Assembly (NCBI GenBank): GCA_028534125.1
Contig: CM052816.1
Location: 21,516,001-21,580,000 of the forward strand
DNA length: 64,000 bases
Reading direction: 5' to 3'
From: Lama glama
Taxonomy: Eukaryota
Made by a program: the position numbers and the translations under genes
Shown: in pieces, positions 3,448 through 54,301 of the stretch
Layout: each line of letters starts with the position of its first letter
How positions within the stretch are numbered: position 1 is the stretch's first letter
Notes under the pieces: generated by a model
The model's input: only the letters and a program-made list of their open reading frames with translations
Databases searched by the model: none
What the model was told of the DNA's origin: nothing

Positions 3448-3870
3448 TTTTAATATTCTTTTTCACCGTGAGCTACTACAAGATATCAAATACAGTTTCC
3501 TGTGCTATACAGTATAAACTTGTTTATCTATTTTATATATATCAGTCAGTATCTGCAAATCTCGAACTCCCAATTTATCCCTTCCCACTCCCTTCCCCCA
3601 CCCCCGGTAAGCGTAAGTTTGTTTTCTATGTCTGTGAGTCTGTTTCTATTTTATAAATAAGTTCATTTGTCTTTTTTTTTTTTTTTAGATTCCACATATG
3701 AATGATATCATATGGTATTTTTCTTTTTCTCTTTCTGGCTTACTTCACTTAGAATGACATTCTCCAGGTATATTCATGTATGACTGAAGCATTGTGTTGT
3801 ACACCAGAAATCGACACAACATTGTAAACTGACTATACTTCAATTTAAAAAAACAAAAGCAAACAAACAA
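3448..3870. mobile_element. Young 5'-inverted L1 3' end (twin-primed insertion)
   Basis: Antisense L1 3' UTR (3448 to about 3770) joined to the sense terminus and A-rich tail (about 3770-3870). 17-bp TSD at 3431-3447 and 3871-3887. Confidence 0.85.
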
Positions 3871-11739: not shown

Positions 11740-11815
11740 TCAGAATGAAGTTACTAGAACTTTGGGATTTTCTTCTTTCTCCATGGAATCTTTTGTTTTT
11801 TTCCCAAACCTGAAC
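11740..11815 (-). CDS. SLC22A4: SLC22A4 exon 10, coding part to the ancestral stop
   Basis: Acceptor TTCAG|GTTCAG; reads FRFGKKTKDSMEKEENPKVLVTSF followed by TGA; 76 bp. Confidence 0.94.
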
Positions 11816-12358: not shown

Positions 12359-13640
12359 TGTCATAGAAAGATATTTGATTTTTCCCCCTAGTTCCTGACT
12401 CAGAGCTCGTAAATCTCTTGTGATGTCCTGAGTGACAAGCGTAACAGGAGCGCTTTGCCTCTTATTCTAATGAGGCAGCTCTTGTCCCTAGATAGCTTCA
12501 CGAGGAAAGCTGGTCTCCAGAAAGACCAATCCTTGACTAGAAGCCTGGAATTTTCAGCCCACGCACCAACCTCCAGGGAGGGGAGAGGGCTGAAGCTGAA
12601 TTAATAATTGATCATGCCTATGTGATGAAACTTCCAGAAACCCCCCAAAACACTAGGGCTCTGAGAGCTTCCAAATTGGCAAACATATCCATGTGCCAGG
12701 ATGGTGATGCTTCCCAACTCCTCAGGACAGAGGCTCCTGTGCTCTGGACCCTTCTGAACCTCACCCTGTACTCTTCTTCATCTGGCTGTTCATTTGTATT
12801 TATAACAAATGGGTAACAGTAAGTAAAATGTTTTCCTGAGTTCTGTGAGTCATTCTAGCAAATTCCTGAACTTGAAGACAAGGGTTGTGGAGACACTGGT
12901 CTTTGTACTCAAGATGGACACGTTGGGGCTCAGGGCAGGTTGCCCCCAAATATGCTACAGGGCATATCGATTAATTTTTATTGAAGTTGCTTGTGAAGCA
13001 GCCAATGCAAAAAGGAAACTCTGGCCTCCTCTGCAACCCTGAAAGCAAGAAATAAATCTCTCCTCTCATGTGAAAGGTGCACTTCCTGCATCTGGATGTA
13101 GGGGTTCACACTTACTACCAGAGAGAGACAGGGAATTCAGGGCTGGACCAAGATGTCTGTATAAACAAACGTTGTTATTTCTTTACAAATTTACTACCCA
13201 AGCTCAAACTTTGCTTAAATTCCTTACTAATTAAGCACCCAAACCTAAGTTTCTTTGTCCTGTCAATCCCTCTCAAATTTATTGTTTGTGTGAAAGGTGT
13301 AAACGCTGCCTTCTTTGGCCACTTCTTAGGTCCTATTTCTGTGAAATTTCCATGAACATTAATCAAAATTTATTTCTTTTTCTCCTGTTAATCTGATTTG
13401 TATCATTTTATTATTAGTCTAGCCATAAGAATGCAAGAGAGGTAGGGCATAAATTTCCACCTCCCTGACAGTCAAAAGTGTGGATAACCTTGGGGACCCA
13501 TTACTTGCAACTGGAGTGTGAAGAGAGGGCTGTCTCACGGGATTGAGACTTGAACCTATGATGCTAACTTGGGTAGTTAGTGTCACAACTGAATTAACTT
13601 ATAGGACACATAGTTGGTGTCAGAATTGCTCGAGGTCAGG
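12359..13640 (+). mobile_element. MER21-like LTR split by a nested LTR
   Basis: MER21-like sequence at 12359-12920 resumes at 13471 (aaagtgtggataaccttggggaccc...ttggtgtcagaa). Confidence 0.7.
12921..13470 (+). mobile_element. MER34-like ERV1 solo LTR nested in the MER21-like LTR
   Basis: Begins (c)gttggggctcag...ccccaaatatg and ends ...ctccctgaca; imperfect 4-bp flanks gaca/gtca. Confidence 0.65.
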
Positions 13641-14432: not shown

Positions 14433-14567
14433 CCTTTCACTTTCTGCATCTGCTCAAGGTCTCTGGTAGAGTCATTCCAAAACTTTCAGGGAAAAAAAGG
14501 GTGATGATTCCAATCAGGACAGTCAGGCTTCCCATGAGGATGTAGGGCAGAACTCTGTTGTAAGCAC
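14433..14567 (-). pseudogene. SLC22A4: SLC22A4 exon 9 with a 1-bp deletion
   Basis: Acceptor TACAG|GTGCT; reads [36 protein letters not shown], then TT- GAG CAG ATG CAG AAA GTG AAA; donor AGG|GTAAGT. 135 bp instead of 136. Confidence 0.93.
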
Positions 14568-15759: not shown

Positions 15760-16690
15760 AGATGGATAAATTTGATTATATAAAAACTAAAATTTCCTGC
15801 ACTGCAAAAAATGTCATAAAGTCAAAATGTAGATGATAAACTAGGAAAAATATTTACAATATATATACAAAGGGCTAATATTTTTCAATTACAAAGAGCT
15901 CCCACAAATCAAAAATAAAAAGTTGAATAAACCATTAGAAAGATGAGCAAAAGACATGAACAGTCAGATCTCTTAAAAATAAATAGAATGTCAATAAATA
16001 CATGAAAAATCTCTCAGTCTCATTCATAACTGAAGAAAAGGAAATGAAAGCAACAATGATACCATTTTTCACATAGCAGATTATCAATGATTAAACAACT
16101 GGATAATCCTCAATGTTGCTGAGGATGTGGAGAAACAGGCACTTTTATATATTTTATAGTTAGATTGTGAATTGGTACAATATCTAGAGGTCAATTTTGC
16201 AATATCTATGAAATTTTTAAATTGCTCCAGCAATTCATGGATCCAAATGTACAAAGGGTATGAGGGCATAGGGAATTGTTTATTGCAGTGTTATCTGTAA
16301 TAACAAACCTGAAAATGGCCAACTGTCTATTCATGGGCCTACTTAAATAAATTATTTATATACATACATACATTTAAAGTCTATGTACTAACTAAAAAAA
16401 AAGGTAAAAGGGCTATATATACCAATATGGAAAGACATCCTGATACACTGTTAATTTTTTAAAAAAATTGTGAAAGAATATTTATAATATAATTTTTTGT
16501 GTGTTTAAAAACATACATATACATATATATATGGAGGAAAAAAACATCTGAAGGGCCACTCACCAAATCGTTAATATTAGTTTCTTCTAGAGCTGTGATT
16601 TGGGGAACTGAGAGAAAAGAGGTAACTTGTACTTTTTCCAGTACTTTCTATGCTGTTTGTATTTTTCACAAGGGAAATCTATTACTTTTA
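15760..16690 (+). mobile_element. Old L1 (L1ME-like) 3' region in intron 8
   Basis: A-rich sense L1 sequence (aatgttgctgaggatgtggagaaacaggcac). Confidence 0.7.
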
Positions 16691-16729
16691 TATTTTTAAA
16701 AAAGAACAGACTGATAAGATGCATCTCAC

Positions 16730-16912
16730 AAAGGTAAACAAAGTAGGGAGCAATGATGCTGCCCACTCTGGAGGCCATGGACGTGATCCCCACAGCCTTG
16801 TTCCTGACCAGGGTTGGGTAGAGCTCTGCAGTGAAGACATACAGCATGGAGAAGGCAGAGGTGATCCCGAATTTTCCTAACATGGCCAGACCAATGGACA
16901 AGAAGTTGTAAT
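16730..16912 (-). CDS. SLC22A4: SLC22A4 exon 8 (frame open, last base T)
   Basis: Acceptor GCCAG|ATTAC; reads (D)[60 protein letters not shown]; donor TTT|GTGAGA; 183 bp. Confidence 0.94.
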
Positions 16913-17750
16913 CTGGCAAAAAGAGACCCAGTGTAAACAGAGATGCTTTTAGAAGCATTATTTTCCTAATTCAGTTGCTGATATTGTCCTTTTTGCTAAT
17001 ACAGGAATGTTTTATAACGTAAAAGTGTTCCCCCAAATTACGCTTTATCTTCAATGTCTTACTAATTGGACATGGACAAAGACAGAGTGTGAGGGGTTGC
17101 TTTGAGCTTTGTTCTTCTGAATCATTTATGCATTCAATGACCTTTGTCCACTTTTATTTACTACAACAGTTTCATAGTAAGCTGTTAGCATGTTAATATA
17201 GTTAAGTTTAATATTTGAAGAGAAGGACCAATCCTTTTTATCTTGTTTATTGTTATTAAGAAATATATATTTCTATGCATAATACTATATATCAATAATC
17301 AGTTGACAACATTTTAACAACATGAAAAAATTAGACATAGGGAAAATGAGAAGCATGTATCTTTTCATGTGGTTTCTAACTACTTAAAGATTACAGACCA
17401 AATTTATACTGGAATTGACATGTACTACCAACTCAGAGAGAAGGTCTGAAGGTACCAAGAAATTGGGAATCAGGACTGTGACTCAATGAGAGAGGTTTCT
17501 ACAAGGACAATTACCGGGAGCATTACTCTTCCTCTTCAGGTGGTAATTTCTGATTCTCCGAGGCTAACTTTTATGTTTGAGGGGAGTAATTTGAACACAG
17601 GAAATCACAGAGTTTACTATCACTTGTTTAACTGACTGATGAGTTGTTTATGATGTAAAGGCTACATAAACAGGGAGCAGTGACTAATAATTAGCCCAGT
17701 GAAGGTGTGGATTTTTTCTGGTAAGCTGTTAATATTGGATAATTTCTTAC

Positions 17751-17965
17751 CTGCAGGTACCAATTGAATTAAGAGAAGCACACCTCCTGCAAAAAGCAGT
17801 ACTCCAGCTATGACATAACACCTGGACAGGGTTTGAAGTAGCAGCCAGGCTGTAACGTAAGCTGGAACTTCAATCAAGGCAGAGAAGAAACAGTTCAGGT
17901 AGGCATCGCCATGTAAATTAGGAGTGTTGAGAGACAGAGCAAAGTAACCCACCGAGGTTAGCATC
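17751..17965 (-). CDS. SLC22A4: SLC22A4 exon 7 (frame open)
   Basis: Acceptor TTCAG|GATG; reads [71 protein letters not shown]; donor CAG|GTAAGA; 215 bp. Confidence 0.95.
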
Positions 17966-18059
17966 CTGAAAGTCAAGAGAAAAAAGACAAAAATGACAAA
18001 AGAATGACTTGAATTACTTCACAGTTTCATGATGATCAAGAAATTGTCTAGATCCTCCT

Positions 18060-18262
18060 GCCTTACAAGCAGACACTAGCCACAAATAGCTATTTAAAAG
18101 TAAATAAATTAAAATTAAATAAAATTGTAAGTTCCATTCCTCAGTGTGGCACTAGCCATACTTCAATTGCTTAGTAGCCACATGTGGCTAATAGTTACTA
18201 TGACGGACAATACAGATATAGAACATTTTCATCAATGCAGAAAGTTTTATTGGACAGCTCTA
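18060..18262 (-). mobile_element. MER3-like hAT-Charlie element
   Basis: tagccacatgtggcta palindrome; terminus cagaaagttttattggacagc. Confidence 0.8.
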
Positions 18263-18422
18263 GTCTAGATATGCCAATGTTCAACAATACCTCTCCTAGT
18301 CTAGTTAATTTCAAGTTTCAATATTTCCTGAAGAGTGTACATTCTCATTCCTGCAGAGCTATTATTTGAAGAAGGAGTGTTGGTCACATCAGTGAACATA
18401 AAACCTGTATTTCATTCTTACC

Positions 18423-18487
18423 AAGAAGAAGAAGGAGAAGGGGAAGAAGGAGGAGGAAGAGAAGGAAGAGAAGGAGAAGCAGCAGCA
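18423..18487. repeat. Purine-rich (GAA/GGA)n low-complexity tract
   Basis: aagaagaagaaggagaagggg...gaaggagaagcagcagc. Confidence 0.85.
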
Positions 18488-19631
18488 TAGGTAATACTGT
18501 GGGATCCACTTACAGTAAATTCCAACTGATTTAGTAAAACTCATTTTAGGGAAAAAAGAGAAAGCCCCATATTGCTTCAAAGTATCACAGAGTGCATATT
18601 TCCATATCCTGTCTTTATAGTTAACTTCCATGTAAAAGCTTCTCTGTGGAAGAAAAACCATACTATGCAGAAATTTGCTTATTATTAACATGACTGAAAA
18701 GCAGAGGGCTTCTGAAAAATGTTTTCAGGAACACTGTTGGATCTTTTTATACATACTCTACTAGGTTGGATAGCACAAGAGCTAATCTAAAACAATTTTT
18801 AAAAACTGAAGCTTTAATTGCTCTAGGTGATTTTCACATTAGGTAATGAGAGTAGCCTAGATAAAACTAGTGACTAGTTTATTACTGGCTCAGTAGTGCC
18901 ACTACTTGAGATACATTTCCATCAATGATATATGCTGACATGTAAGAACTAAGGAGGTCTATTTTGAGGAAAGCCATATGCCTAGGACACACTTGCTTAA
19001 TTCAGAGGCATAAACTCTGTCATTGACTTCTTCTAATTGCAGAACAGGATGGCCCTAAAAATAGACAAGCTGCAGTCTGGACCTACTCTTTTTAGTGCTG
19101 CCATCATGGGGTAGGCATGTTCTTTTTTCCTTCTTCCTCATTTCTTGGCAGATACATTATTAAATCTAGTCTACAAAGTCAATTCAGTATTTCTATGCCT
19201 TAAAATCCACTTGGTAGATGGCTATTAGCAAGTATTAAAAGATTGTCAAAACTCCAATCCAGGCACTGGGGATTCAAGTTATTCCAGCCTTACTCATCAG
19301 TTGCCAGTACAGCTTCAGGAAACAGGAGCTGAATTAGCATCTTGGCTTCAGGCACCAGGGACCTCATAAATCTTAATCCCAGGAACCTTGGGAGGGATGG
19401 GGAACCCTTTCCCTGTGGGTCACAGTATTGCAGACTTAAATACTGTCCCTTGTGACTTTTTTTTTTCAGTAACCAGTTCCATGAATTAAATTGAGGCCTT
19501 CCCAAATAACTTAGAATTTTAAAATTTTAGTTTCATCTCAGGAAGACCTAGGCCTTGCCCTGATCATCCCTTGAATTAAAGAAAATTAGCTGTATATTTA
19601 CATGTAAAATCAAAAAACTAAATCTATTTAA

Positions 19632-19855
19632 TCAAATGAATCTATATACAAAACAGAAACAGACTCACAGACATAGGAAACAAACTTAAGGTTACCAAAG
19701 GGGAAAGGGAGGGTAAGGGGAAAATTGGGAGTATGGGATTACTAGATACAAACTACTATACATAAATATGCAGCAAGGATTTACTGTATAGCACAGGGAA
19801 CTATACACCTGAAAGTAACAGACCATTATAAATCAACTATACTTCAATAAAAACA
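19632..19855 (+). mobile_element. Short young L1 3' end (artiodactyl type)
   Basis: caaatgaatctatatacaaaacagaaacagactcacagacatag...ctgtatagcacagggaactata...aatcaactatacttcaataaaaa. Confidence 0.85.
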
Positions 19856-20259
19856 ATTGGAACTAAAAAGTTACAAGGCTCTGAGGTGGGGAATCTCTCC
19901 AGGATAAAATCTCTCTGTGGCCCTATGATGTGTGTGCAGTAAGAGGTTGAGGAAGGAATTTCTACTAAGAAGGAAGTAAGACTGCCAGACCTCATTATAG
20001 CAGGTGCTCCCCAGATATTAGCATCCTTCTTTCCAGAAAAAATCAGACACCTCCTCATGCAGCTTACAGCCATATGACCTTTTGGCTTTTGTACCACTTG
20101 GAGTATACAGCTCTAGAGCACGCCCCCGAAGCATAACCCTGTTATCACAACAAAGCAAAGCTCCTATGAAACTACTGGGAACTAGCAGTCCTCCTGGAGA
20201 GCTCTGGGGGTGGTGCCAGGCACAGACAGGATCATGCTAACGCTTGATGCTTCCACAGG

Positions 20260-20388
20260 ACTTGTGAAAAATGCAGATTGCCAGGTCCCACCATGGGCCT
20301 GCTTCATCTGAATCTTTCCTGGAGCCCGGCCTGGGAATCTGGATGTTTAAAGGGATGACTGTGATAAGCATCCAGGTTTGGAAACCTG
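20260..20388. mobile_element. MER5-like DNA transposon fragment
   Basis: cttgtgaaaaatgcagattgccagg...ggcctgggaatctggatgtttaa. Confidence 0.6.
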
Positions 20389-22084
20389 AGAACAAGAACA
20401 TTCTTGTATCCACTGCTTGTTTGTCTCTGGCCTGTACAGAGCCACTAAAATGCCTTTGGACCAGGCTGAAGGTGCTTCAGAAGAGAAGCCAGAGAAGCTC
20501 AACATCTCCTTCCAAGCTGATACTACTCCATATTTTTTCCTGTTCAAATTAATGCCACTGCCCCTTACATGAGATAAGAAAACACAGCTTTTAAGAGCAC
20601 ACACTTTGGCACCAGAGAGACTTCGGAAAAGCACAAGCTCCCTTTCCCTCCACAGGCTCATCTAGTTGACACTCGATGTGCCTCGCGGCAGGAAGAAACC
20701 AGGCGTGCTGTCACAAGCGAATTTTCACACTGGCCTTTATTTTTACTTGTCTGTAACTATTTATCTCTTCTATATTTTATTCTTGCTTTCATCCATGTAG
20801 GTCTGATCTTTAATACTAGACTATAAGTTCCTCAGAACAAGAGTCAGACCACATATCCACTAAATATCAACAAACACCCAGGACAGCTCTGAGATGCACA
20901 AGTGTTAGACACTCCCAATGTTATTTTTGTATCTAGTCAAACTGACAAAGGCTGGGAATGGAATTCTTGATCTGAAGAGCAAAGCATTAAGATATATTTG
21001 CCCTGGCAGCCCTTTGAGAGCTTGGGTTCATGGCCACTGTAATTAATCCTCCGGTCATCACCAAGGTATCTGCTCCTGTCAAAGGCCACAAAGACCAGGG
21101 ATGGAGGAAGCCCTCAGGGTAAGGCACTGGCATGCCTGCCTCCCTTCACAGAGTCCTGCTTTCTGGGGTGGCCTGGAGCACAGATGTGAGCATGGGGAAA
21201 GCAAGCAGACTAAGAAGCATATGGTCTTGATGGGGTTTCCTGAGCAGCCCCCCACCCTTCTCCTAGCCAAGAGTGCCCTGCCCCACCCTCTCCATCCATC
21301 TGTGTGTCCTCCCTGGTTTGGACTCTTCAGCCCTGAGTCACTCTGCTCGCTTTCTCTGCTGGATCACAGTGTCCACTCACTGGGTACTTCCTCCCTCATG
21401 TCATCCTTTATCTTCCATCGAAACCTCTTGACACTCAGTTACATTCTCTGCTCCTTAAGCACAGAAACTATGTCTAATTTTTCTTGTTTTCTCTAGGAGT
21501 TGGCACGGGGCATGGCTGAGGACACTGTGAGTCCTCACTGACTGTCAGGAAGTGCATCTGCTTCCATAGGATACCAGCTGTTTTCTCGTGGCCTCCTGCC
21601 TGCAGGGGTGAATCCTCCAGCCTGAGCTCTCAGGCATCAACATGACACAGCAGGACTAAAGACATGGCACAACTTCCTCAGCAGGCTTTGGTAAGATTCA
21701 GGGGACAGTGGGGAACCCGTGGGTGGAATACCCCTCAAACACATTTTTCCCACTTAAACTGGACATTTGAAAAACAGCTGTATGTATCTGCATCAATGGT
21801 ATGGAGCAAGACCAACAAAAAGTTGAAGATAAGCTTGCAAAAGGGAAAGGAACTAGTATTTAATCAACACTTGTTCTTTGCTAAGCAGTTTACATATATT
21901 ATTGCACTTACTTGGCCCACGGCCCTTTGAGGTAGATTTTATCTCAGAACTTCATCATTATTGTGTCTCTAAGGCCTTGAACAATGCCTGGTACATAGTG
22001 GGCACCCAAAACATAGAGTCAAATTAAAGTCCATGATCAAGAATGCATAGATGATTTCAAGAGGAAACATCTACAAAGGCTTAC

Positions 22085-22210
22085 CTCCACAGGATCAAAA
22101 ACCATGACTGGGACAGCTACGTTGTTCACTTTTGCAGCTTTTTGGATGGTATCTTCAGCTTCTTTAAATCTTCTCTGGGATATCAGCCACCGGGGAGATC
22201 AGGAATAAAC
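22085..22210 (-). pseudogene. SLC22A4: SLC22A4 exon 5 with a 1-bp deletion in the PESPRWL motif
   Basis: Acceptor TTTAG|G TTT ATT CCT GA- TCT CCC CGG TGG CTG; continues [33 protein letters not shown] in the shifted frame; donor GAG|GTAAGC. 126 bp instead of 127. Confidence 0.93.
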
Positions 22211-23269
22211 CTAAAATTCACTTTTAATGGTTTATAATTTTTCACAGTAGCAAGGTTTGATGTTACTAATTGTAAGTTGCCCCCGAGTAATTTTTATTTT
22301 GTAAAATGCTAGTTTGTCTTTTTAAAGAACATCAGGAGGGAAGCCTCATGTGAGTTCCATTGATTGTAGGAACAAATAAAAGTACCTTCAAGTTTCAAAT
22401 TTTTGATCAAATCATAGAACCGATCATCAGTTGTGCTCGAAGCCTGGACCAGACTTTAAGGGGTAACACTAACTGTGGGCATGTTTAAGCCAGGGCAGCT
22501 GGAGTATGCCGTTCAAAACATTATAGCCAGTGTGGCTTAAGAGAAACACAGCCTAGGGTCTTTTCAGTGTGTCTATCCCTGGGAGCATCCCTGCTGCCCC
22601 AGCTGGTGATGCTCACAAGTTTATCGGGTAAGAGAGGGCATCTGTGTTCCTCAGGCTTTTCCGGCAGTCAGAGGAGGAGGTGAGCATACTGACATCCTCC
22701 TGCAGGCTGTCCCCAGGGCTTTCAACAGATTCCCAGCTCAGTGAGCACCCAGACCAGTTTTGGGGAGACAGATAATGTTGTCTTATTTTTTTTTAATGTC
22801 TAGAAACATAATTTTTTATTATACAATCTATCCACATTTTAAGTGATGCTCAAACACAGTTGACTTCTTTCCTAATTTTTCTATTTTTTCTATTTCTTTT
22901 CATCATGATTTATTTAATTTTCCTATTCTTTCCTCATTTTTATTTCTCAGAATTGCTTAGCCATCCTTCTGTCCGGTCTTGTTGCTCTTGCTTTCCTTAG
23001 CTATTTGTCAGTACTTAGTTATCCTAGAAAACAAGTTATATGTAGCAGATACCGAGACCTCCTGTAATTAATGGGCCCCTCCAAGGCCTCAGTAGGGATT
23101 ACCTCAGAGCAAAACACAACATACAGAATGGCCAACCCCCAGCTTCCATTCCCAGCCTACTACTAGCATATGAGTTGAAAAATGAATCCAGTTTGCATTT
23201 TTCAGATTGTACCCTTAGTTGGTCCCTGTAGCAACTGTAATGATGGGAGGTCACTGACCTTCAGTAGTT

Positions 23270-23450
23270 AGAGCTGTGCCATCCAAAAGAACTTTCTGTG
23301 GTGTTCTGTATCTGAGCTGTCCAATAGAGCAGCCACTACACGTGTGACTATTGAGCTGGTGTGACTAGTCAGACTGAAGAAACTAATTTTAATTTATTTA
23401 CTTTTAATTAAATGGCTGCCTGTGGCTAATGGTGACTGTATTAGTGCAGA
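23270..23450 (+). mobile_element. MER3-like element
   Basis: tccaaaagaactttctgtgg...gctgtccaatag...tgtggctaatggtgactgtatt. Confidence 0.7.
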
Positions 23451-24717: not shown

Positions 24718-25946
24718 CTCTCATTCCAGAAAACTTCCCTGCTCGCAGACTGGGTCAGGAACTCAAAATCGTATCTACCCCCTAACACACTACCTCTCAA
24801 ATTCTAGGGAAGTAAGAAAAAATTTCTCTCTCTCCCCCATGCACACCCATGCCAAGAATCTGCACTGGTTAAACCACAGCAGTCTTAGAGGCACCCAAAG
24901 GACAGTGGTTCGGAGTGGTCTAACTTGAGCCACGTGATCCAACAAGGCCAGGAAGTACTACCTGTCAGCCTCTACGGCTGCCTGACAGTTGCAGCAAGAT
25001 GAAGGCCCTGCTGGGAAATCTCCTAAGGCAGTGTGACCACACGACGGGGCAACCACGAGGGCTAATGAGTTCCAAAAAATGACCATTGTGTGTAAGCAGG
25101 TAGAGATGAAGCAGTTCAGCAAAAAACAGTCACTGCTGGGAGATTTGACTATGATATCATGAGACCAAACCAAGACTAATTAATAAGAGAGAGAGAGAGA
25201 GAGTGCCAGACCCACCAATGGAAAAATAATGCCCTTTCCTCTTGCTTAAATATGAAAAAAAACAAAAAAATGGGGAATTCCCCCAAAAAGAGGGTATGGC
25301 TAAGGACTTTATTCCATTATTCTTAATCTTTTCTCTCACTTGAAATTTCCCACTTAATCACACTGGGTGAAAATGGGGCCAGTATCTCAACACTTTGTTA
25401 TTCCTACACTGCTGTGTCAAAATTGGGCTGGAGGGTTGTAGGGGGAGAGAAGAAAACATTTCTCCAACAACTCTTTAAACAAAAGCAATTCTCTCCCCCT
25501 TCAAGACAAAGCAGATAAACAGGCACATCTTAGATGCTAATCATCACATGATAGGGATGCTTGAAGAAGCTACATTAGTTGAAACCATAAGGAGAAAGAG
25601 GTTTGCTAGAGAGAGAAAAGTGTCAAAAGAGCAGGGCGGGGGCAAAATTAAAAACAACCAAGCCCACAGTATCATCTCCACAAACAACAACCAGCAGTAA
25701 CAGACAAGAATGGGGAGAGCCTGAGTGGGAACTGGGTTTCCTGAGAACCGAGCTTTGTGGGCCGGTGGAGAATCACACCCCAGCATGCGGGCTCCCCCCA
25801 CCACAACGAGGCAAATGGTCTCTGGGCTTCGAGGTCGCAGCTCACTGCAGTGAGATCAGCAAACCCATGCTAGGATCAGCACCAGGCTCTCGGCTCCAGG
25901 CTGCTGGCCTGCAGCAGGGGGCTGTCTGGGATGGAGCCTCACTCAT

Positions 25947-26117
25947 CACCACAGCGGGACACACAGCACCCTGGCACCATCAGCACCAGCAGCAGCATCC
26001 ACCAGTCTCTGATGAAGTAAGCAAACAGTGGCAGCAGCATGTAGCCAAATGCATAAAATATGCACACTCCTAACGTAGAGAATATAATACGAACTGACTT
26101 GCCAAGAATTTCTGCTC
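25947..26117 (-). pseudogene. SLC22A4: SLC22A4 exon 4 with a 1-bp deletion and a mutated donor
   Basis: Reads (G)[48 protein letters not shown], then CCA GG- GTG CTG TGT GTC CCG CTG TGG TG. 171 bp instead of 172. Followed by ATGAGT rather than GTGAGT. Confidence 0.93.
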
Positions 26118-29639: not shown

Positions 29640-30268
29640 GTATCATTTTGGAAAACATTCTAGCAGTTCCTTAAATGGTTAAACATAAAATTCCCATATG
29701 ACCCATCAATTCCTCTTGGAAAACAGCCTGGCAGATCTTTAAATGGTTAAACATAAAATTCCCATATGACCCAGCAAGGTACATATCCAAGAGAACTGAA
29801 AACATAGATCCACAAAAAAACCTTGTATTCAAATGTTGATAACAACATTCTTCATAATAGCCAAAGAGTGGAAACAACCTAGATGTCTATCAACAGATGA
29901 AGAGATGAACAAAATGTGGTTATCTCCTACAATGGAATATTGATTAAATGCTACAGCATGGACCAACCTTAAAAACATTAAGCGAAAGTAGTCAGTCACA
30001 AAAGCCACATACTGTATGATTCCATTTATCTGAAATATCTGGAATAGACAAATCCACACAGATAGAAAGTAGATTAGTGGCTGCCAGGGACTTGGGAAAA
30101 AGGAGAAGGGGGAGTGACTGGTAAAAGGGTTCCTCTTAGGGGTGATGAATATTTTCTGGAGTTAGAGTTTTTGGTTGTACAACTTTGCGAATATACTAGA
30201 AACCACTGAATTATACTCTTTTAAAGAGGTAATATTATGGTTTGCAAGTTCTATCTCAATTTAAAAAC
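29640..30268 (+). mobile_element. L1MB-like 3' end carrying an internal 68-bp tandem duplication
   Basis: ttcataatagccaaagagtggaaacaacctagatgtctatcaacagatg...tatctcaatttaaaaa. Confidence 0.85.
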
Positions 30269-31205
30269 TATGTGGCTGACAAAGGCTTCATGATTGATAT
30301 AGTGCAATTACCATCTTGCCTGAGCTTTCCAGTAGCCAAAGTTATAAAGGGAGGTGCCATCAGTTATGTACTTATCAAAGGAAAGAACACATTTAAACAT
30401 CAGTAAATAGTAAATAGTTCAACATGGAACAAATACTGCATAGGAGGCTGATGTTAGTTGTACTGGAAAAATACCAAATTAATGGATCAGTGAAGGCAGG
30501 AGGCAGTGAAGTGTGCAAAATAATTTCAAGCAGCCAGTTATGAGAAAGGATGATGCCACTGGAGTTTTACCCAGAGGCTGTGGACAGGTTAAAGTTATTG
30601 CTGGGAAACAGTAGATTGTGAGGGGCAGCTGGAGTGTGGGTGGAGTCAGTGTCCTCGGTCCTGGTAGTCATTTCCTCCTGAACCAGAATCATTCTGGCAG
30701 CTTCCACGTGTGTCCACACTGTTCCTTTAAGTAAGGAACTGTTCCTTCCTTCCCTTTTCTTGTCTCCTATGACTCTGGCAAGCTTTACAATTGTTTTAAA
30801 GCAGAGCAAGGAGAGGATCTGTTTCTGCACCACTTTGGAAGTGGGAGTAATTCAGCATCCTGAATTAATGTGAATACTCCTAAAATGGGAGATTATCATC
30901 ACAGAGTCTTGCCAACCCTTCCCTGGAGCCAGAGGGCAAAAGTGAAGATCCAGACAGAACTCAGACCAGACCCCAAACTCTGGTTTCTTTTAGTTAAATA
31001 AAACCCGGAACTCGACTATTTCAGCCCTGGAACACCAGAGAGCGCTGCTGTGCTGTGGGAAGCCTGCCCGCCGTGCCCTTGCACTGTCCCCCGACCCCGC
31101 CCCACCCCAGGTGCTGCTGACGAGGGAGTCTGGCTGCTCCAGGGGAAGGTTGATTTTCAGTGACACTCTTTAAATGTTCAGGCCTGAGAACAAATCTCAT
31201 ACCAG

Positions 31206-31705
31206 NNNNNNNNNNNNNNNNNNNNNNNNNNNNNNNNNNNNNNNNNNNNNNNNNNNNNNNNNNNNNNNNNNNNNNNNNNNNNNNNNNNNNNNNNNNNNNN
31301 NNNNNNNNNNNNNNNNNNNNNNNNNNNNNNNNNNNNNNNNNNNNNNNNNNNNNNNNNNNNNNNNNNNNNNNNNNNNNNNNNNNNNNNNNNNNNNNNNNNN
31401 NNNNNNNNNNNNNNNNNNNNNNNNNNNNNNNNNNNNNNNNNNNNNNNNNNNNNNNNNNNNNNNNNNNNNNNNNNNNNNNNNNNNNNNNNNNNNNNNNNNN
31501 NNNNNNNNNNNNNNNNNNNNNNNNNNNNNNNNNNNNNNNNNNNNNNNNNNNNNNNNNNNNNNNNNNNNNNNNNNNNNNNNNNNNNNNNNNNNNNNNNNNN
31601 NNNNNNNNNNNNNNNNNNNNNNNNNNNNNNNNNNNNNNNNNNNNNNNNNNNNNNNNNNNNNNNNNNNNNNNNNNNNNNNNNNNNNNNNNNNNNNNNNNNN
31701 NNNNN
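31206..31705. other. Assembly gap (500 N)
   Basis: Run of N in intron 3, flanked by identical 125-bp sequences. Confidence 0.99.
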
Positions 31706-33906
31706 GCACTGTCCCCCGACCCCGCCCCACCCCAGGTGCTGCTGACGAGGGAGTCTGGCTGCTCCAGGGGAAGGTTGATTTTCAGTGACACTCTTTAAAT
31801 GTTCAGGCCTGAGAACAAATCTCATACCAGGACACAAAACTCAGCAGTTTCCCAAAGAGCACAGTGGAGTAAACCTACAGCCAGGGAGGCTCCCAGAGCA
31901 CCCTATAATAGCCCCAGACCCAGGCTGATAGGAGCCTGCTGCACCCAGCTTCCCACCTGCTGATTGCTGGTTTGAACATCTAGGCTCGGACTGATCTTAC
32001 AGATCTTACTTTCCCCTTGGCCCTCTCACTCTTCTCAGCATGGAGAGCAGGGAGGGAAGTTGGTTACAGTATCAGGGTCAGTTGGGCAGGGACTTTCCTG
32101 CAGGAGGCCTGGTGTGGGCTCTCCTGGCCTCATCCACTCACAGGGGAGGCTCTATGGCCCCAGAAACACCCTGTGCCACTGGAAAGACTGGTCTCAGTGC
32201 TGGCCATTCAGTAGAACCTAGGGGATACCATGCATGGCACACACGCCACCAGGCTCCTGATCCCAATGACAGGGCTTCTCAGGCTTCACTGTGACTCTGT
32301 CCCCTTCCACTTCAGAGGATCCTTTAGGTCCTCCTAAAGTCAGGCAGAGCCCTCTGTTTTGGGGAGGCCTGTTTAGTCTCTGGTTTGTTCTACCCCAAAC
32401 AGCCACCCACTGGGCTTTCCAGGTATAGGGCATCGCTACAAGGAAGATGGAATATGCAGAATTTATATCATGAAAACAATAGATTTTGCTGTGCCCAAGA
32501 CCCCTGTGTCCTTGGGGCCATCAGGCATTAGAAGATTGCAATTTCTGTCCTAAATTCCTCCAATCTCCAGTTTCCAGCAAAACTGGCTGGAGGCTCTCTG
32601 GGGCCTCTACGTAACAATCTCCTTTGGAAATTCTTGCTCCCCTTTTTCCCCCTTCAGGGAGGAGAGAGCCCCACTTCTGCTGGGGCTGTGTGGCTTCAGC
32701 ATGCCCCTCCTTCCTCCCCTCTTATGACACTATGGCTGGGCCTGTGGTGAGGGGCTCTTCACAAATGATTAAAGGAGTGGAATTTGAACAATTCCATCTT
32801 GGCAACCTGACAGAGGGTGTATGCATCCTCAACTTAGAGAACACAGCATCCTGAAAGCCAATGAGTCATCCAGACTCTTAAAAGTGATCAGAATCATCTT
32901 ACTAGATTCAGATTTTTGAGACAAGAAGAATCATTAGACTTACATTAAAGGGCCACTCTTAGTAATTACACTGTGACAATAGGGACAATCTGGGACAGCC
33001 AGGAAGGACATTTGATCACACTGGAGATTATGGGAATTGGTGCCTGTTGTCCCAGAGGTTCCCCTCTATCTCCTTCTCTCTCCAACTCAGAGGGAGCACG
33101 TAGGCTCAGAGAGCATGCTGGGGCCTCTCACTCCTGTGGATGACTCTCATCAACCTGCCTGGAGCTCACCCCACTGCCTCTGAGGGAAACCTGGTGAAGG
33201 GCCTGGGGGCCTCTTCATGGTCTTTAGCTTGTGAGGCCCCTTCATGCAGCCTGATATTCCAGAAGAAGGCTGCTGCTAGGATACAGGACTGCTCTCATCA
33301 GTGAGGGTCATCGTGCACACAGCTGTTAGGCTCTGGTTGTGGGCTCTGACTCAGGGTGAGACTAGATCTGCCCAATGATGGCAGACTGGTGCTGGACTCC
33401 TGTCTGGCACATGTCTCCTCCACCTGTGTACTGGCCACACCAACTATTCTAAGTCCTTCCATGGGCCATGACCAGCTGCCCTTTAGCCTTGTCCCAGGCA
33501 GAAGTCCCAAGCTTTCATAGCTCAGATCAAAGACATCCCTAGACTGTTGCTCCATTAAGATCCCCTCCTCTGTGTTTCTCCCAAGCCCTGTGCTCCTGCG
33601 ATGTGTCTCAGCTGGTTCCTCCCAGCTCCAGCTCTTATTTAGTGTCACATTTCAGGACTTAATACAGAGCTGGCTCCCTGTGAGTGCCTGCCCTGCCTGT
33701 GACAGATCAAAGAACCTGTAGCTATAATCCCCTCCCCAGCATATATACATCTGGAGCTTATCACATTTGGAAGCACAGCCGTGAGTTGAGGTGCTTCCTC
33801 CTATGCTGAGTAAAAGCACTCACTGTAACCTCTTCAGTGGCCTCCTCTTCCCAGGCCTCTCAGAGGGGTGGAAGGAGGAGCCCTGCAGTTCAGAAGCCAT
33901 CCTTAC

Positions 33907-34061
33907 CTAGTATGAAGGCCACCACATAGTTGGAGATCTGGCCCATGCCGACGATGACAAATAATACGGTGAACATCTCCCAGTTAATGGAAAAAATCTG
34001 CAGGAAGCTGAAGCCAGTCTGCACAGCCATGGTTATGAAGAGGATGGTCTTCCTGCCAAAC
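33907..34061 (-). CDS. SLC22A4: SLC22A4 exon 3 (frame open)
   Basis: Acceptor TACAG|GTTTGG; reads [51 protein letters not shown]; donor TAG|GTAAGG; 155 bp. Confidence 0.96.
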
Positions 34062-35397: not shown

Positions 35398-35501
35398 CTG
35401 TCTGACAGCTGCCCGGACATAAAGGACCCGAGGAGCACGCCTACGAAGAACAGGGAGATGGTGAGCTGCGTCTTCCAATCATCCTCACACGCCAGATTCC
35501 A
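35398..35501 (-). CDS. SLC22A4: SLC22A4 exon 2 (frame open)
   Basis: Acceptor GACAG|TGGAAT; reads [34 protein letters not shown](R); donor CAG|GTAAGG; 104 bp. Confidence 0.96.
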
Positions 35502-46059: not shown

Positions 46060-46915
46060 TATTAGGTCATGACTCATGGAATAAAATAAATACGCCTAAG
46101 TCTGTACTGATATGAAGTAATAATTGTATAAGTAAATGCGAGTGAAAAGGAAGCTCTTCTTTACAGAAGAATTCCAGTTAATAAATAGGAATGAATGTGG
46201 GAGATGGAAAATCACCGCTAGGCAAACACCCACAGGAATAGTTGTTCCAGTGAAAGTCTAGTAATGGATGTTAAAATCACTCGGTAGAATGTCCAGGAAG
46301 AAACGGGATGTTTGTACAGTCTCAAAGTATCTCCCTCAAGATATTTATTAATTATGAAGGGGAAAAAATAGTAACTTTACAGTGGAGAAACCCAGCAGAC
46401 ACCGACTTAGCCAAGTAATCAAGGTTAATGTCACCAGTAGTCAGCCACATCAACATCATGTGCCTGCTGGTAAGATGCCCCGAGGACATATCACTTCCCT
46501 GGTATTCTTACCAAAAAGGGCACAAACTCAGTCTCATCATGAGAGAAATCACACAAATCCAAATTGAGGGACGTTCATCAAAACAACTGATAGACTCATA
46601 AAAAGTGTCAAGATCATGACAAACTGAGGAACTGTCACAGACTTGGGGAGACAAAGGACTTGACAACTAAATACAATGTGGGATTCTGGGCTGGATCCTA
46701 AAACAGAAAAAAACAGTAGTGGAGAAATTGGTAAAATTCGAGGTCTATAGTTTACCTAATAATATGGTCACCAATGTTAATTTCCCAGTTTTGATAAATG
46801 AATTATGGCTATGTAACTTGTAGACATTAGGGGAAGCCAGATGGAAGGTATATGTGAATTCTCTGTGCTATTTTCACAACTTTTCTCTAAATGAAAATTA
46901 TTTCCAAATGAAAGT
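46060..46915 (+). mobile_element. L1MC/ME-like 3' UTR
   Basis: aactttacagtggagaaacccagcagacacc...aaaattatttccaaatgaaagtt. Confidence 0.75.
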
Positions 46916-48420: not shown

Positions 48421-50539
48421 GTATCCCCTTTTATAGACAAGGAGACTGAGGCACTGAGCAATGATGTAACCTGCTAAAGTCATCCCACTGGTTAAAGACA
48501 GGGTCAGAAGTGGCCCTCTGGTCTGACTCCAGAACTCCTCCTTGTGCCATCGCCTCTCTGGGGAGAACCACCCCACCCTACCCACTTTCAAGCTACTCCT
48601 TTCCTTCCTCCCAACTACTAGTGCCCCTTTGCCTTTTATTTTACTCCTAGCACCCAAAAAGGAAGCCAGGAAGTGAAAGACTGCTGGAAAAAGCAAGTCC
48701 TGGTGTGTATGTGTGAGAGTGTGATGATGTGCCTCCCCAGAGGTACCCACAGGCCCCTGTGAAGAGCACAACAGGGATAGCTATGTACTTGTAAGCCAGG
48801 AGCTACCCACCCCTCACACCTTGAAGTGAACAAAACAAGCAAGAAAGGGGAAAGAGACAAGTCAGCCCAGCTGTCAAGGAGGGCTGCAGCCAGTAGGGCC
48901 AGCTCCAGCTCAGGTGCTGACGACACTTCCAGGACCAGAGGATGGGCAAGCACTAGGAGCCCCTGCTAGGAGATCAAAGCCAGAGAAGCACGGCCACCTC
49001 AGGGACCAGGGTCAGCATAGTGCCAATGCTGAGGGGAATCAAGAGGTGCTCCACATACTGAGTCCACTTTCCACAGTTCCTATTGACTCCACAGCCACTG
49101 CTCTTACCTGGCCACCAGTCTCCTGCCAAAACAATTCCCACAGCTTCCTCACTGGTCTTCTTGTTTTTCATAGCAGTGAGAGTGAGTTCTTACTCAAAAC
49201 ACAAATCTGGCCATGTTACCTCTTCCTTTGAACCCTTACTATTTCCTCACTGTCTTCAGAATAATGTCAACTCTTCAACATTCTTACAAGGCCATTGTGA
49301 AGATACCCCTGCAGACATTTCTAGCCTCACCTGCCATTCCTTGAGTTCCAGGCCATCTTGATCTATGAAATCCCATCCCCAGAATCTGCCATGTTCTTTG
49401 CCTGGTCACATTTCCAGACTCAGCTCAAATTTTAACACCTCTTCTTAAGAGTATTTCCTCACCCTGCTATCTCCACAGAAAAGGTAATTTTTGCCCCAGG
49501 TCACACAGTAAGCCTGTCAGGATTTGAATTCAGGTTCCTGAACCCTGTTCCTAACCAGGTATGATGTTAGCTGACTCTAACATGGCCAGTGTGCCCTGTG
49601 GGCATCTGAGCTTTGAAAGCACAAGGCCAGGCATGGTATCCTATTACTGTCCCACTGTGCTGAGGAAAGGAGATAGAAGACTAGCAGACACTATGCTCAG
49701 GTTTTCACATAGAGCAGAGGAGAGGCCAGAAGCTGGGAAATTCTACATGCCTGATTTAACAGCAGAAAACGAGTCTATGAGGGTAACCTCTTCAGAAGAT
49801 GTGTGCTGATCGAGCATCTCCTGGTCCTTATCAAATGCAAAATAGGAAATGCAGAGGACAAAGTATGTCTATATCTTGACTCTTGAAACTTAGAAATCCT
49901 GCCACTAAACCATGTCGGATGGAAGGGAGTAATGGCATAAGCTGGAGCCCTTGTCCACCTCTAGGCCCTGTGCTCAGATGGTCTCTGTGAGTCTGTCTCT
50001 TCATGAGTGCCTTGAGGTCAGGGTTTCCTGCACTTTGCCAGTATCAGGAGGTTCTCTGCTCCTTTCTAGAGAAATTGGAGCCTCAGGACAGGACCCAAGC
50101 CTCACCATAGAGAATGACAGAGCAGGAGACCCTCTGATGCTTCCAGAAGTCTGTGGGCAGGGAACAGGCCAGATCTGCCAAAGCCCTGCCCAGCAGCAGG
50201 GCTCTTCTTTGTGTCTGCATGTGGGCTCAGCAGCAGCCCCCACACCTTTCCTCAAGCCTGTGGCAGGAACTTGACTCAGGCTGTACATCTGGGGAGCCTG
50301 GGGCCGGTGGTGTCTAGACTCTTGGGAAACAACTTGGTCTGTTGTGAAACTGTCAAAGGAAAAGGCAGATGACAACGGCCTCCTTTCTTTCTTCTCCGTC
50401 CCCTTCATATTAGACAGAACAATTAGGAATGAGCCTAGGTGAGTTCTGCTCTCTCTGGCTGCACAACCCTGTCGTGCGTCAGCCAGGTTTGATGAAGAGT
50501 CGGGGACGCTGATCCAGGCATTGCCAGGGAGTCTAGGCG

Positions 50540-51760
50540 GGGAACTGATACAGATGAAGGGTCGCTCATACACTCACCTCAGTCACAATGGTGGACAAGT
50601 AGACGTCCTGGCTGAACTCCCAGCCATCCAGGCAGCTCTTCTGCTCCAGCTGCTCCAAGTCCACGTCGCGCCCCGGCTCCAGCCCGAGCGCCAAGAAGTT
50701 GACGATCGTCGCGAGGCGGTAGCGGCGGCAGCCGTGAGGCACCTCGCGGCCGTCCTGCAGCCGCAGCGGGAGACTGTGGTTGCGCCAAGCGAGGCTCAGG
50801 TTCGCGGTGTCCGGCACCCGGCAGCGGTGCTCCGGGGTCCCCGCCAGGAACACTACTGGCATACCGTTGAAGCCGTTGGGGATGATGCTGGCGCTGAGCA
50901 GGAGGAAGATGAGGCGCTGGAAGGGCCCCCACTCGCCCAGGAAGGCGGTCACCTCGTCGTAGTCCCGCATGCTTCCCGCTGCTGCTCTGCAGTCTGCAAC
51001 AACGGGCGATAAGGGCGTCCCTCGGACAAGCGTCGCGCGGCGAGGGCGCTCCCCGAGGCCGTCAGAACGTTCTCGCGGGCCAGGCAGGCTGAGGGAAAGT
51101 GGAGCGCGCCGCCAGGGACCGTTCCCGGGAAGCGGGCTGCGGGCGTTGGTGAGTTCCTAGGAAATGGTCGCAAAGCTGGAAGGCACGGTATAAATTCGGG
51201 ACCACACCTCCATCCTGGCCGGGGCGGGGAGGGTGGGGCGGCCGGGACGGCCGAGGTGGGGCCCGGAGCGGCTCCCCCCGCGCTCCGCCCGCCGCCCCGG
51301 GCGACCCCGCGGTAGACCCGGCTGAGGCCTGGAGCTCAGGTGGGCCGCCCAGCTCCCGCGCACCCCGCGTGCCCCGCGACCGCCAGCTGCTGAGCGCCCA
51401 GCTCCGAGCCGCCGCGTTGGGCACCACGGGGGCGAGCGGGCGAAAGGGAAGAGCTGAGGCGGGAGAGCAAAGTCTTTGAGAGGTCGGGCCGCGGCCCTCT
51501 CTGTTGGCGTCGCCCAGGCCTCATCCGGGCGGGAGGCTCTCCCTTGCCACTTCTAACCCGGAGTCTGAGCTCAGAGGGCCTCGCGCGAGGCGTGGACGGC
51601 CGAGCCCGTGCCGTTGGTGCTCCCGGGAAACTTCTGTGGGCACAGGGGTGGCAGGAGCACACCATCTCTTCTGGCACACCGCTGCCCGAGTGGCCGGCAC
51701 CAGCCGACCCGGCCCTCGCCTCCGCCCCCATCCCCCACCCCACTTCTCCAATCCTAGAGG
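50540..51760. promoter_or_regulatory. CpG island and GC-rich promoter of SLC22A4
   Basis: Very high GC and CpG density over exon 1 and upstream. GC boxes (GGGGCGGG at about 51221, GGGGCGG at about 51235) and a RUNX-type ACCACA at 51201-51206. Confidence 0.88.
50578..50970 (-). CDS. SLC22A4: SLC22A4 coding exon 1 (frame open, 131 codons)
   Basis: [22 protein letters not shown]...[19 protein letters not shown]; 393 bp; donor GAG|GTGAGT at 50577. Confidence 0.97.
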
Positions 51761-54301
51761 GCTGGATTCAGTTACCAGCCTGCGGAGCCCAAATTGGCAT
51801 CTTCCGGACATCCAGGAGCCTCACCTCGAAAAGGGGGAAAGGGCCCAGTGCCCAGAAGGGATGAGCGAGATCACACTGCGTCAGAGATAGGCTGGGAGCC
51901 AGGGGCTACCGGGTCGTCCCAGGATCTTGTTGGGGCCTCTCGAGAAGATTTAATACGGAGCCTGGCCCTTTGTAAGACCGCGGTAATGGGAGCACCTCTT
52001 ACTGCTTTCACCACCCTGGGCTCTGATTTTGATCCCCCAGGGCTCTTCATCGGGGCTGGCTGCCAGAGTCTTCTTGGACTGGAAGGCGTCTGATTTGCGG
52101 AAGGGACCGCCCCACCCCGCCCTCTGCCCCAGTCCAGGAACGGAGGGGGGGGGGGGACGGAGGAGGAGAAGGTCCAGCTTGGCACCCAGATCTGGCAAGG
52201 TAACCAGAGTAGGGACCAGTCCGCTCAGTGTCCAAGCCTAAGACTCCTTTCCAGTCGGATTTTTCACCTGGGGCAAGTACCTCATTCCTTTCATTTGCCT
52301 CAGGTTTTTCCCAACCCTCATTACTATGGGTGACTGAGATTCCCACTTGGACCTTCTAAAGAGTCATACAGAATGAAGCAGCGTCTGTTTCCTAGTTCTG
52401 GTTCCATTGGTCAACTCCCCTGCAGTCCCAGGCTGCATATGTGTGAGCCAAACAGGTACCACTCAACTGAATTGTTTGCTACCACCCAAGAAATCCTTAC
52501 CTTTTATTTATCCAAGGTAAATCCATACCTTGAACCATTTAGCCTTCCATATGAAATGAATGCCCAAGTACACTGCTTACAGCTGGACCCCGGGAGGCTT
52601 TCTATTCACCAGTGTCCTTCAGTGCCACTGCTAAGTGGGGCTGTGTTGCAGTAAGAATCCATTTTTTGGCTTGTATCTTCTGTGAGACAGGGCTGAGTAT
52701 TTTTCCCCCTATCAATTGGTTATAGAGAACTACCCTCATAAGACCACAGGTCTGAGTTGGGGGCGAAGTGTTGATATAGCTGAGATAGGTGTCATAGGAG
52801 TCTGAATCACCAGTTCATTAACTTAAGCTGTATGGACCTGCTCAGTCCTGATCCTGACACTACCATTTCTATTATATGATGGATTGCTGACATGCCTGCT
52901 TAATCTTATGACTTGATAGAATCTGGCAATACCTAGCTTTTACTGGACATTTCTAGTTGCCTAGACCCTTGATATCCCATGGCCAGGCACTCAATTTTTA
53001 CTGTAGCCATGTAGTTGCTTTTCAAATGGCAAATAGCTCTCTGCTACAGAAGGCATGACCTTGTTATGGAGATCTGTACTGAAACTCTTTTATTAGGGCC
53101 TATCTCTTTTATCAGAGGCTCTACTCTGCATTCTTATCACCATGAACATCTCTAGCACCATGGATTCTGCTGGGTCATATGGACCAAATGGCAGGGAACC
53201 TTGTACTATAGTTGGACACACTGTAGAGCTCTCTCTGGGCTTCACTCAAAAGTGAGAGTTTTCTCAGGCACCCATTAAATGGGTTATAGTAGTATTCCCA
53301 CGAAGCACTATGTCTTTATTAGTGGTAGAGGGTACAGGGTACAACAACTTGCCTTTACCTTACAGAGGATGGCCTGGCATGTTCCAGACTACTGAATCTC
53401 TAATAACTTCACCAATTGGCTTCAAAATAATAAGGAATGAAAGAAGTGGGTGAGCATATAGATGAAATAAGATTGGCCATAGTAGTGGTCCTAGGGATTC
53501 ATTTTACTAGTTTGTCTACTTTTATATACATTTAACTCATTCCAGAACAAAAAGTTAAAAAAAAAAACAAACAAAACAAAAAAACATTTGTCAGCATGCA
53601 AGGCCCCGAATAATACTTTTTATCTCCTATCTTCTGTCATGGATGTGTCTTACTAGAACATCTGCTCACTAGGTTATGACATATTAGCATTATGTAATCG
53701 ATACAGTAAACCATCGTGATATTCTATGGAAAATCAAGACAATCAAAGTCACTAAACACTGTGATAGAGAGCAGAAGAATTAACGCAGCCCAGGGGCAAG
53801 GCAGTGAATATATACTGCTGTTCATCCCCACATAAAAACAAACTGTTTTGATCCTCCTTACTGAAGGATATTAAGAAGATAATCTTTGATGTTGCTGTTA
53901 ATCTCTGAAATTCCATTCAGGATGTCGTTTTACTTCTGATGTAATAAGTTGGTCAAAAACGTGGGTGTGTTAGAGGCTTCTGCTTGGCCCCTCCTGCCAT
54001 AATTGCTCTTATTTTATAGAACAGGGAGTAAATATTAGGGTCTTGCCAGCTGCTAAGTGTACCTAGTTATGTACTTAGGGAACAGGGAATGAGAGTGTGG
54101 ATCTTTAGACCCATTAGACTTCCTTGCAGGAGAATTCTGTTTACCAATTGGCTTTCACGAGCCCCTAGTATAACTAGGGGACCATAATGGTATTTCCCAT
54201 TCCCTGGTATCAGTGCCAATGCACAATCTGTATCCAACAGCCCTTGAAAGGTTTGCGTCTTTCCCTTTCCTTAGGCCAGAGTTACTCTAGTAAAAGTTCA
54301 C

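Follow-up and report, generated by a model that had tools for sequence, protein, structure and literature searches.

Probable germline deletion of exon 6 in a decayed SLC22A4 gene of the llama

The stretch of DNA analyzed here (the window) comprises 64,000 nucleotides of the Lama glama contig CM052816.1, and all coordinates below are counted within it. It carries SLC22A4, the gene of the ergothioneine transporter (OCTN1 or ETT), on the minus strand, with a start codon at 50970 and a stop codon at 11740. When the pig, gray whale, hippo, and reindeer proteins were used as tblastn queries, all four recovered exons 1–5 and 7–10, i.e., nine of the ten exons, in agreement with a preliminary description of this locus, according to which every exon but the sixth is recognizable. 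No second SLC22 gene was found in the 64-kb window with tblastn or with a hidden Markov model (HMM). The human gene is described as having 10 exons over about 49.8 kb, untranslated parts included (PMC13277114); the coding span in the window is 39.2 kb, which is not like for like with the human figure because untranslated parts are counted there.

The coding part of exon 1 (50578–50970, minus strand, as are all exons) is open; it has four replacements at positions that are invariant in 97 orthologues, and its S60L is shared with alpaca SLC22A5. Exon 2 (35398–35501, 104 bases) and exon 3 (33907–34061, 155 bases) are open and flanked by intact AG and GT dinucleotides. Exon 4 (25947–26117, 171 bases) has a 1-base deletion, an AT donor, and three SLC22A5-type residues, and exon 5 (22085–22210, 126 bases) has a 1-base deletion near 22199 and an intact GT donor. 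Exon 7 (17751–17965, 215 bases) is open, with the replacements P396S, R398C, and G408A at positions invariant in the same 97 orthologues. Exon 8 (16730–16912, 183 bases) is also open and carries M459K; its final base is T in place of the G needed for the split glycine codon of the orthologues. Exon 9 (14433–14567, 135 bases) contains a 1-base deletion near 14455 followed within a few codons by a stop, and the coding part of exon 10 (11740–11815) retains the native stop. The promoter and exon 1 are covered by a CpG island (50501–52000), where the three 500-base bins have a GC content of 0.64–0.74 and a CpG observed/expected ratio of 0.62–0.96.

We compared the gene with SLC22A4 orthologues and with the paralogue SLC22A5. 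As in pig SLC22A4 (NP_001139224.1, P0004), the nine exons occur in order and with matching phases, and the best identity of each exon to the orthologues is 83–98%. In a tree based on exons 3, 5, 7, 8, and 10 (25 rows, 244 columns; exons 1, 2, 4, and 9 were excluded), the gene is placed inside the cetartiodactyl SLC22A4 clade with a support of 96/98, whereas SLC22A5 forms a separate group (100/100). SLC22A5, or OCTN2 (alpaca XP_015102060.2, P0127; human structure 9PDQ), is a paralogue to which exon 1 of the window gene is 92% identical, but exons 3, 5, 7, 8, and 10 group with SLC22A4, and alpaca SLC22A5 is full length, including its own exon 6. In contrast to SLC22A4 orthologues, the window gene lacks exon 6, is frameshifted in exons 4, 5, and 9, has an AT donor, and possesses no intact reading frame. 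Exon 6 is thus the one exception to the ten-exon structure with matching phases; its absence is the finding and casts no doubt on the assignment of the gene to SLC22A4.

The joined intron between exons 5 and 7 (17966–22084, minus strand) is 4,119 bases long, contains no N, and is bounded by canonical splice sites, the GT donor of exon 5 and the AG acceptor of exon 7, both of which are intact. The preliminary description had noted a gap-free interval of 4.1 kb without a recognizable exon 6, and both parts of that statement hold. The phase at the end of exon 5 is 0, and exon 7 starts one base ahead of a codon; together with the 32-residue peptide of the pig protein (residues 318–349), these phases show that the missing exon is the short form of 95 bases, the length anticipated in that description. 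Apart from one extension, none of the four tblastn queries produced a match anywhere in the window for pig residues 318–349. For two of the four, the exon 7 match runs on into the polypyrimidine tract, and we assign this extension to the intron because read-through open reading frames (ORFs) from other mammalian genomes (P0025, P0062, P0067, and P0094) carry a similar peptide ahead of exon 7. When the six frames of the window were searched with an HMM of exon 6 peptides, the best hit had an E value of 1.4 and lay outside the interval, and none of the 21 listed matches fell inside it, while exons 2 and 10, used as positive controls, were found in the window with E values of 3.6e-23 and 3.9e-18.

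A more tolerant search gave the same result. Frameshift-tolerant DNA-level profiles were built from 97 full-length orthologues and aligned with gaps. On the gene strand of the interval, the exon 6 profile reached 18.2 bits, a score matched by 29 of 100 shuffled sequences (17.6 ± 1.8 bits), and on the opposite strand it reached 17.6 bits. Profiles of the two halves of exon 6 were likewise at chance (18/100 and 57/100 shuffles reached the observed score). The seven control exons, in contrast, all scored 70–133 bits, and their 14 halves 32–72 bits, the frameshifted exons 4 and 5 included. Hence the interval preserves not so much as half of the exon. Decay of exon 6 in place is rejected, as its profile score is that of shuffled sequence while the control exons, even the frameshifted ones, score far above this level. 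The best exon 6 profile score in the whole window, 27.2 bits at 46469, is on the wrong (plus) strand in intron 1 and is below that of the weakest half-exon control. Among 223 SLC22A4-type proteins with both the exon 5 and the exon 7 motifs, 222 have 70–75 residues between them and the remaining one is a fused model, such that none of the 223 lacks exon 6 alone. Some 7 kb would separate exons 5 and 7 in the human gene, in line with the preliminary description, which has the human interval several kb longer.

The missing exon was originally presented as an isolated deletion; its absence from both the interval and the whole window stands, but the isolation does not, for it is one of five lesions, the others being the 1-base deletions in exons 4, 5, and 9 and the AT donor of exon 4. 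The deletion in exon 4, read against the orthologues, is near 25969, and AT replaces GT at 25946–25945. A spare GT occurs at 25942–25941, four bases beyond the dead donor, and its use would exactly offset the 1-base deletion in the same exon; this spare site may reflect chance or an early compensating step. In exon 5, the frame shifted near 22199 stops at 22185–22183, and the shifted part contains three stops altogether. Together with the missing exon 6, the 1-base deletion in exon 5 takes out 96 bases and so keeps the frame, yet nothing is rescued because of those three stops. The reading frame is disabled by three 1-base deletions, an AT donor, and a missing exon.

The effect of these lesions was followed through 48 enumerated splice forms up to exon 8. 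Exon 5 is part of 24 of these forms, each of which meets a stop within it or earlier, and thus, wherever exon 5 is included, the frame has already ended upstream of the site of exon 6. Only five forms retain the native frame in exon 8: two of these require the dead donor, two omit at least three more exons, and one joins exons 1-2-3-4 (shifted donor)-7-8. The product of this last form would be devoid of residues 275–349, and with them of the central cytoplasmic loop and one half of the hydrophobic segment 338–356. An AlphaFold model of the pig protein had a mean predicted local distance difference test score of 38 and was not used, and its helix 336–360 agrees with the hydropathy peak.

Amino acid replacements in the gene were counted at 378 conserved positions, defined as those kept in at least 90% of the 97 orthologues, with exon 9 excluded. 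The window gene has 24 changes at these positions, or 20 once the four identical to alpaca SLC22A5 are set aside; the median among the orthologues is 3, and the values for whales and hippo are 1–4. On this protein-level comparison, purifying selection on the gene appears relaxed, less so when judged against pig and ruminants and on the tree. The 17–20 excess replacements over about 850 non-synonymous sites translate into 14–17 million years at 1.4e-9 per year, a rate obtained from 7e-9 per generation and a generation of 5 years (PMC7331169). An alternative rate of 2.2e-9 gives 9–11 million years, and the intervals overall extend from 5 to 26. If the pig–ruminant background of 8–12 changes is subtracted, the age falls to about 4–10 million years by hand arithmetic. 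All these estimates exceed the age of the Lama–Vicugna split, put at about 2.5 million years (PMC7331169), and they overlap the divergence of Old World from New World camelids, put at 11–25 million years (PMC4884201). Selection on SLC22A4 thus likely lapsed, very roughly, some 5–25 million years ago.

Within the joined intron, an old repeat fragment (19633–19805, plus strand) is 77% identical to a copy at 3491–3669, and by its look we take it to be the 3′ end of a long interspersed element 1 (LINE-1). A search for a target-site duplication around it found none above chance (the best flank score, 5, was reached by 11 of 60 random pairs). Its identity of only 77% to the other copy suggests that the fragment predates the loss. 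Just past it, near 19950, GC content steps from about 0.37 to about 0.47, which is suggestive only. Short, chance-like repeats are the only candidates for breakpoint repeats within the interval, and no long internal repeat is present. At the exon 7 end, the last ~100 bases of intron 6 appear to be kept, since the read-through peptides of other mammals resemble the window there. Outgroup intron DNA was also sought by scanning metagenomes with the pig protein, and a single locus of 29% identity among 65 candidate stretches proved of no use. Exon loss mediated by complementary DNA (cDNA), as in a processed pseudogene, was considered and rejected: exon 5 is not fused to exon 7, and the 4,119 intron bases with native donor and acceptor that remain rule this route out. 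Old fragments resembling MER-type DNA transposons are present at 18060–18260, 20230–20390, and 23270–23440 and could serve as landmarks in an alignment of the orthologous introns.

An inherited deletion would have joined the remnants of introns 5 and 6. Since neither a pair of repeats nor a target-site duplication marks a junction, the deletion would have arisen by ordinary end-joining repair of a break, and, being one of five lesions, it more likely struck a gene that was already dead than killed it. Overall, we consider it highly probable that the llama SLC22A4 is a unitary pseudogene with a germline deletion of exon 6, and that it has been dead for very roughly 5–25 million years.

Several observations weigh against this interpretation. 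The conserved-site excess narrows relative to pig (8 changes), buffalo (8), reindeer (9), and bighorn sheep (12); two of the 97 orthologue models have more than 20 changes (22 and 31, the latter with an aberrant segment); and the terminal branch of the window gene in the tree, 0.089 compared with 0.071 for pig and 0.068 for reindeer, corresponds to modest relaxation. The two lesions of exon 4 may cancel through the shifted donor, in which case they would amount to a single lesion. The CpG island over the promoter is intact, and as it is still CpG-rich, the locus may still be transcribed, either into a non-coding transcript or with the island serving another transcript. Finally, the assembly is imperfect: 9 kb from the interval, intron 3 contains a gap of 500 N (31206–31705) with an exact 125-base duplicate on its two sides (31081–31205 and 31706–31830), which is probably a false gap where overlapping contigs were joined.

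This false gap is relevant to the possibility that exon 6 is missing through an assembly artefact, either a segment dropped by the assembler or a deletion allele private to the sequenced animal, and support for the junction comes from the assembly sequence, not from reads. To set against this, the interval has neither N nor a long internal repeat able to collapse, and the four other lesions and the conserved-site excess mark the gene as dead, a setting where deletions are to be expected. The sequencing runs bear on the point as well. Of 24 listed runs, 14, from six studies and with five organism labels, contain 92–96% of 676 words sampled from 16500–23000 on both sides; the labels would fit closely related South American species. 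The flanks of the interval are thus real and common to the organisms of several runs. Word shares of 92–96% are nevertheless blind to a single false junction or to single lesions, and they constitute no test of the junction, because a false one would cost only about three words; moreover, one of the runs may be the assembly's own source. Altogether, a true germline deletion is likely, and an artefact improbable. A different origin of the same deletion, in which a LINE-1 insertion removed its own target site and thereby founded the decay of the gene, draws on the LINE-1-like 3′ end in the middle of the interval, its lack of a target-site duplication, and the GC step beside it. An old target-site duplication would have faded as well, however, and the 77% identity to the second copy in the window suggests a fragment older than the loss of function, so that we regard this origin as very improbable.

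The remaining two explanations concern not the deletion but what it means for the animal. The window gene might be a decayed duplicate, with an intact SLC22A4 or a moved exon 6 elsewhere in the genome, in which case camelids would keep the transporter. The family does duplicate locally, as in rodents, which are described as having a third local member, SLC22A21 (PMC13277114); no neighboring gene was identified in the window, and the search covered these 64 kb, beyond which an intact copy or a moved exon could lie, a further point against the loss. Yet the window contains a single exon set with full intron structure and its own CpG-island promoter, and no intact camelid SLC22A4 protein appeared in any listed match (best 120 of 486, best 120 of 750, and 15 of the 137 members of the largest cluster). 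Alpaca SLC22A5 was present among the same listed matches, but Camelus SLC22A5 was likewise unseen there, which makes the absence of a camelid protein weak evidence and belongs with the points against the loss. Eight matches were short proteins holding exon 6, none camelid by name; none of four read-through ORFs of the window was found in the protein collection, and a motif of exon 7 specific to the window gene was absent from all of its 359 proteins. A surviving duplicate accordingly strikes us as unlikely, though no more so than an artefact. Lower still is the probability that the gene remains functional by way of a shortened isoform in which the shifted exon 4 donor is used and exons 5 and 6 are skipped, exon 6 having been lost as unused. 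Exons 1-2-3-4(+4)-7-8 are open in the native frame with GT-AG sites, skipping of exons 5 and 6 is annotated in four proteins of whales, buffalo, and oryx, and the promoter retains its CpG island; in addition, six RNA-type runs (X15–X20) hold 5–24% of the sampled words, a lead that was not used as evidence. The product, however, would lack residues 275–349, with half of the hydrophobic helix 338–356 gone, a loss with which a 12-helix major-facilitator fold should be incompatible. The very exons such an isoform would use (1, 2, 4, 7, and 8), moreover, contain the majority of the damaging changes, and exon 9 is frameshifted.

If exon 6 was deleted in a dead SLC22A4, as we favor, the full-length transcripts would be directed to nonsense-mediated decay, and the sole canonical route that is in frame and preserves most of the protein (1-2-3-4 shifted-7-8) would end early in exon 9. 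The gene is accordingly predicted to make no working ergothioneine transporter, and, if the animals resemble knockout mice, ergothioneine would be scarce or absent in their tissues and red cells. SLC22A4 knockout mice are reported as viable, with ergothioneine undetectable in tissues, red cells, and plasma and few baseline abnormalities, and knockout mice and fish are described as viable and more sensitive to oxidative stress (PMC11200860, PMC9816654). A viable animal with little or no ergothioneine in tissues and red cells is likewise the outcome predicted here, as in mice and zebrafish lacking Slc22a4 (work of Kato 2010 and Pfeiffer 2015, as summarized in PMC11200860, PMC9816654, and PMC13277114); in contrast to those engineered animals, the camelids would have lost the gene naturally, millions of years ago, and their phenotype is a prediction. 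SLC22A15 is reported to carry ergothioneine too, less well (PMC11200860, PMC9816654). We put forward, tentatively and at somewhat less than even probability, that the ergothioneine transporter has long been knocked out naturally in all living camelids, which would be the first mammalian family known to have red cells and tissues that do without this antioxidant, unless SLC22A5 or SLC22A15 substitutes for it.

In its anatomy, the locus is of a known kind. Deletion of an exon with scattered small lesions is described as usual in mammalian gene loss (PMC7671337), and the losses of TYMP and CTSE reported by Sharma and Hiller (PMC7671337) show the same mix of an exon deletion and small inactivating mutations at an intron-bearing locus. 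For TYMP and CTSE, raw reads or mutations common to several species served as validation (PMC7671337), whereas the loss of SLC22A4 is known here from the sequence of one assembly. A unitary pseudogene with an exon deletion is a familiar event; a camelid loss of SLC22A4 would not be. In the available parts of two papers, SLC22A4 is described as conserved across vertebrates with a camelid loss unnamed (PMC13277114, PMC7653990), and camels are unmentioned in the available part of a review of the ergothioneine transporter (PMC11200860). SLC22A4 is also unnamed in the text and one supplement of PMC7671337, the text and three supplements of PMC5865188, and the text and two supplements of PMC7331169. 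No report of a camelid SLC22A4 loss was found in the literature by titles and the beginnings of abstracts; genome-wide tables of gene loss may already list it.

An exon deletion within a pseudogene is ordinary by itself, and the interest is in the probable camelid loss of the ergothioneine transporter. The case has been made that ergothioneine is a vitamin, or a "longevity vitamin" (PMC9816654), and a dedicated conserved transporter is part of that argument (PMC11200860). If the loss is true, camelids would provide a long-lived large-animal test of this idea: in a mammalian lineage without the gene for millions of years, the vitamin question would be testable by one blood measurement, and ergothioneine present despite the loss of the gene would indicate a substitute route. 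The exon 6 deletion itself would serve as a simple polymerase chain reaction marker with which the loss could be dated among camels, llamas, and alpacas.

The window gene also shares features with SLC22A5. Leucine at residue 60 (S60L) is found, among the 269 proteins covering the site, only in two alpaca SLC22A5 proteins besides the window gene (two of 149 in another count), which points to a camelid source. Exon 4 (25947–26117, minus strand) contains the three SLC22A5-type residues. These shared residues suggest gene conversion between SLC22A4 and SLC22A5 in this lineage; the exon 1 tree did not resolve the placement of the window gene and alpaca SLC22A5, and thus it is the residues that carry the case. 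In the same tree, bat SLC22A4 pairs with bat SLC22A5 (92/84), and exchange between the two genes may recur in mammals.

Outside camelids, Choloepus didactylus was represented among the matches listed only by two short "SLC22A4-like" models, P0243 and P0332, of 258 and 240 residues; a second, independent loss of SLC22A4 in the two-toed sloth is possible, as is a split annotation. Elsewhere in the window, intron 9 contains, by eye, a repeat of about 1.3 kb (12380–13640) that presumably is of the long terminal repeat type, possibly with nested elements, and a 68-base tandem duplication with 90% identity is present at 29648–29777 within an old LINE-1-like fragment.

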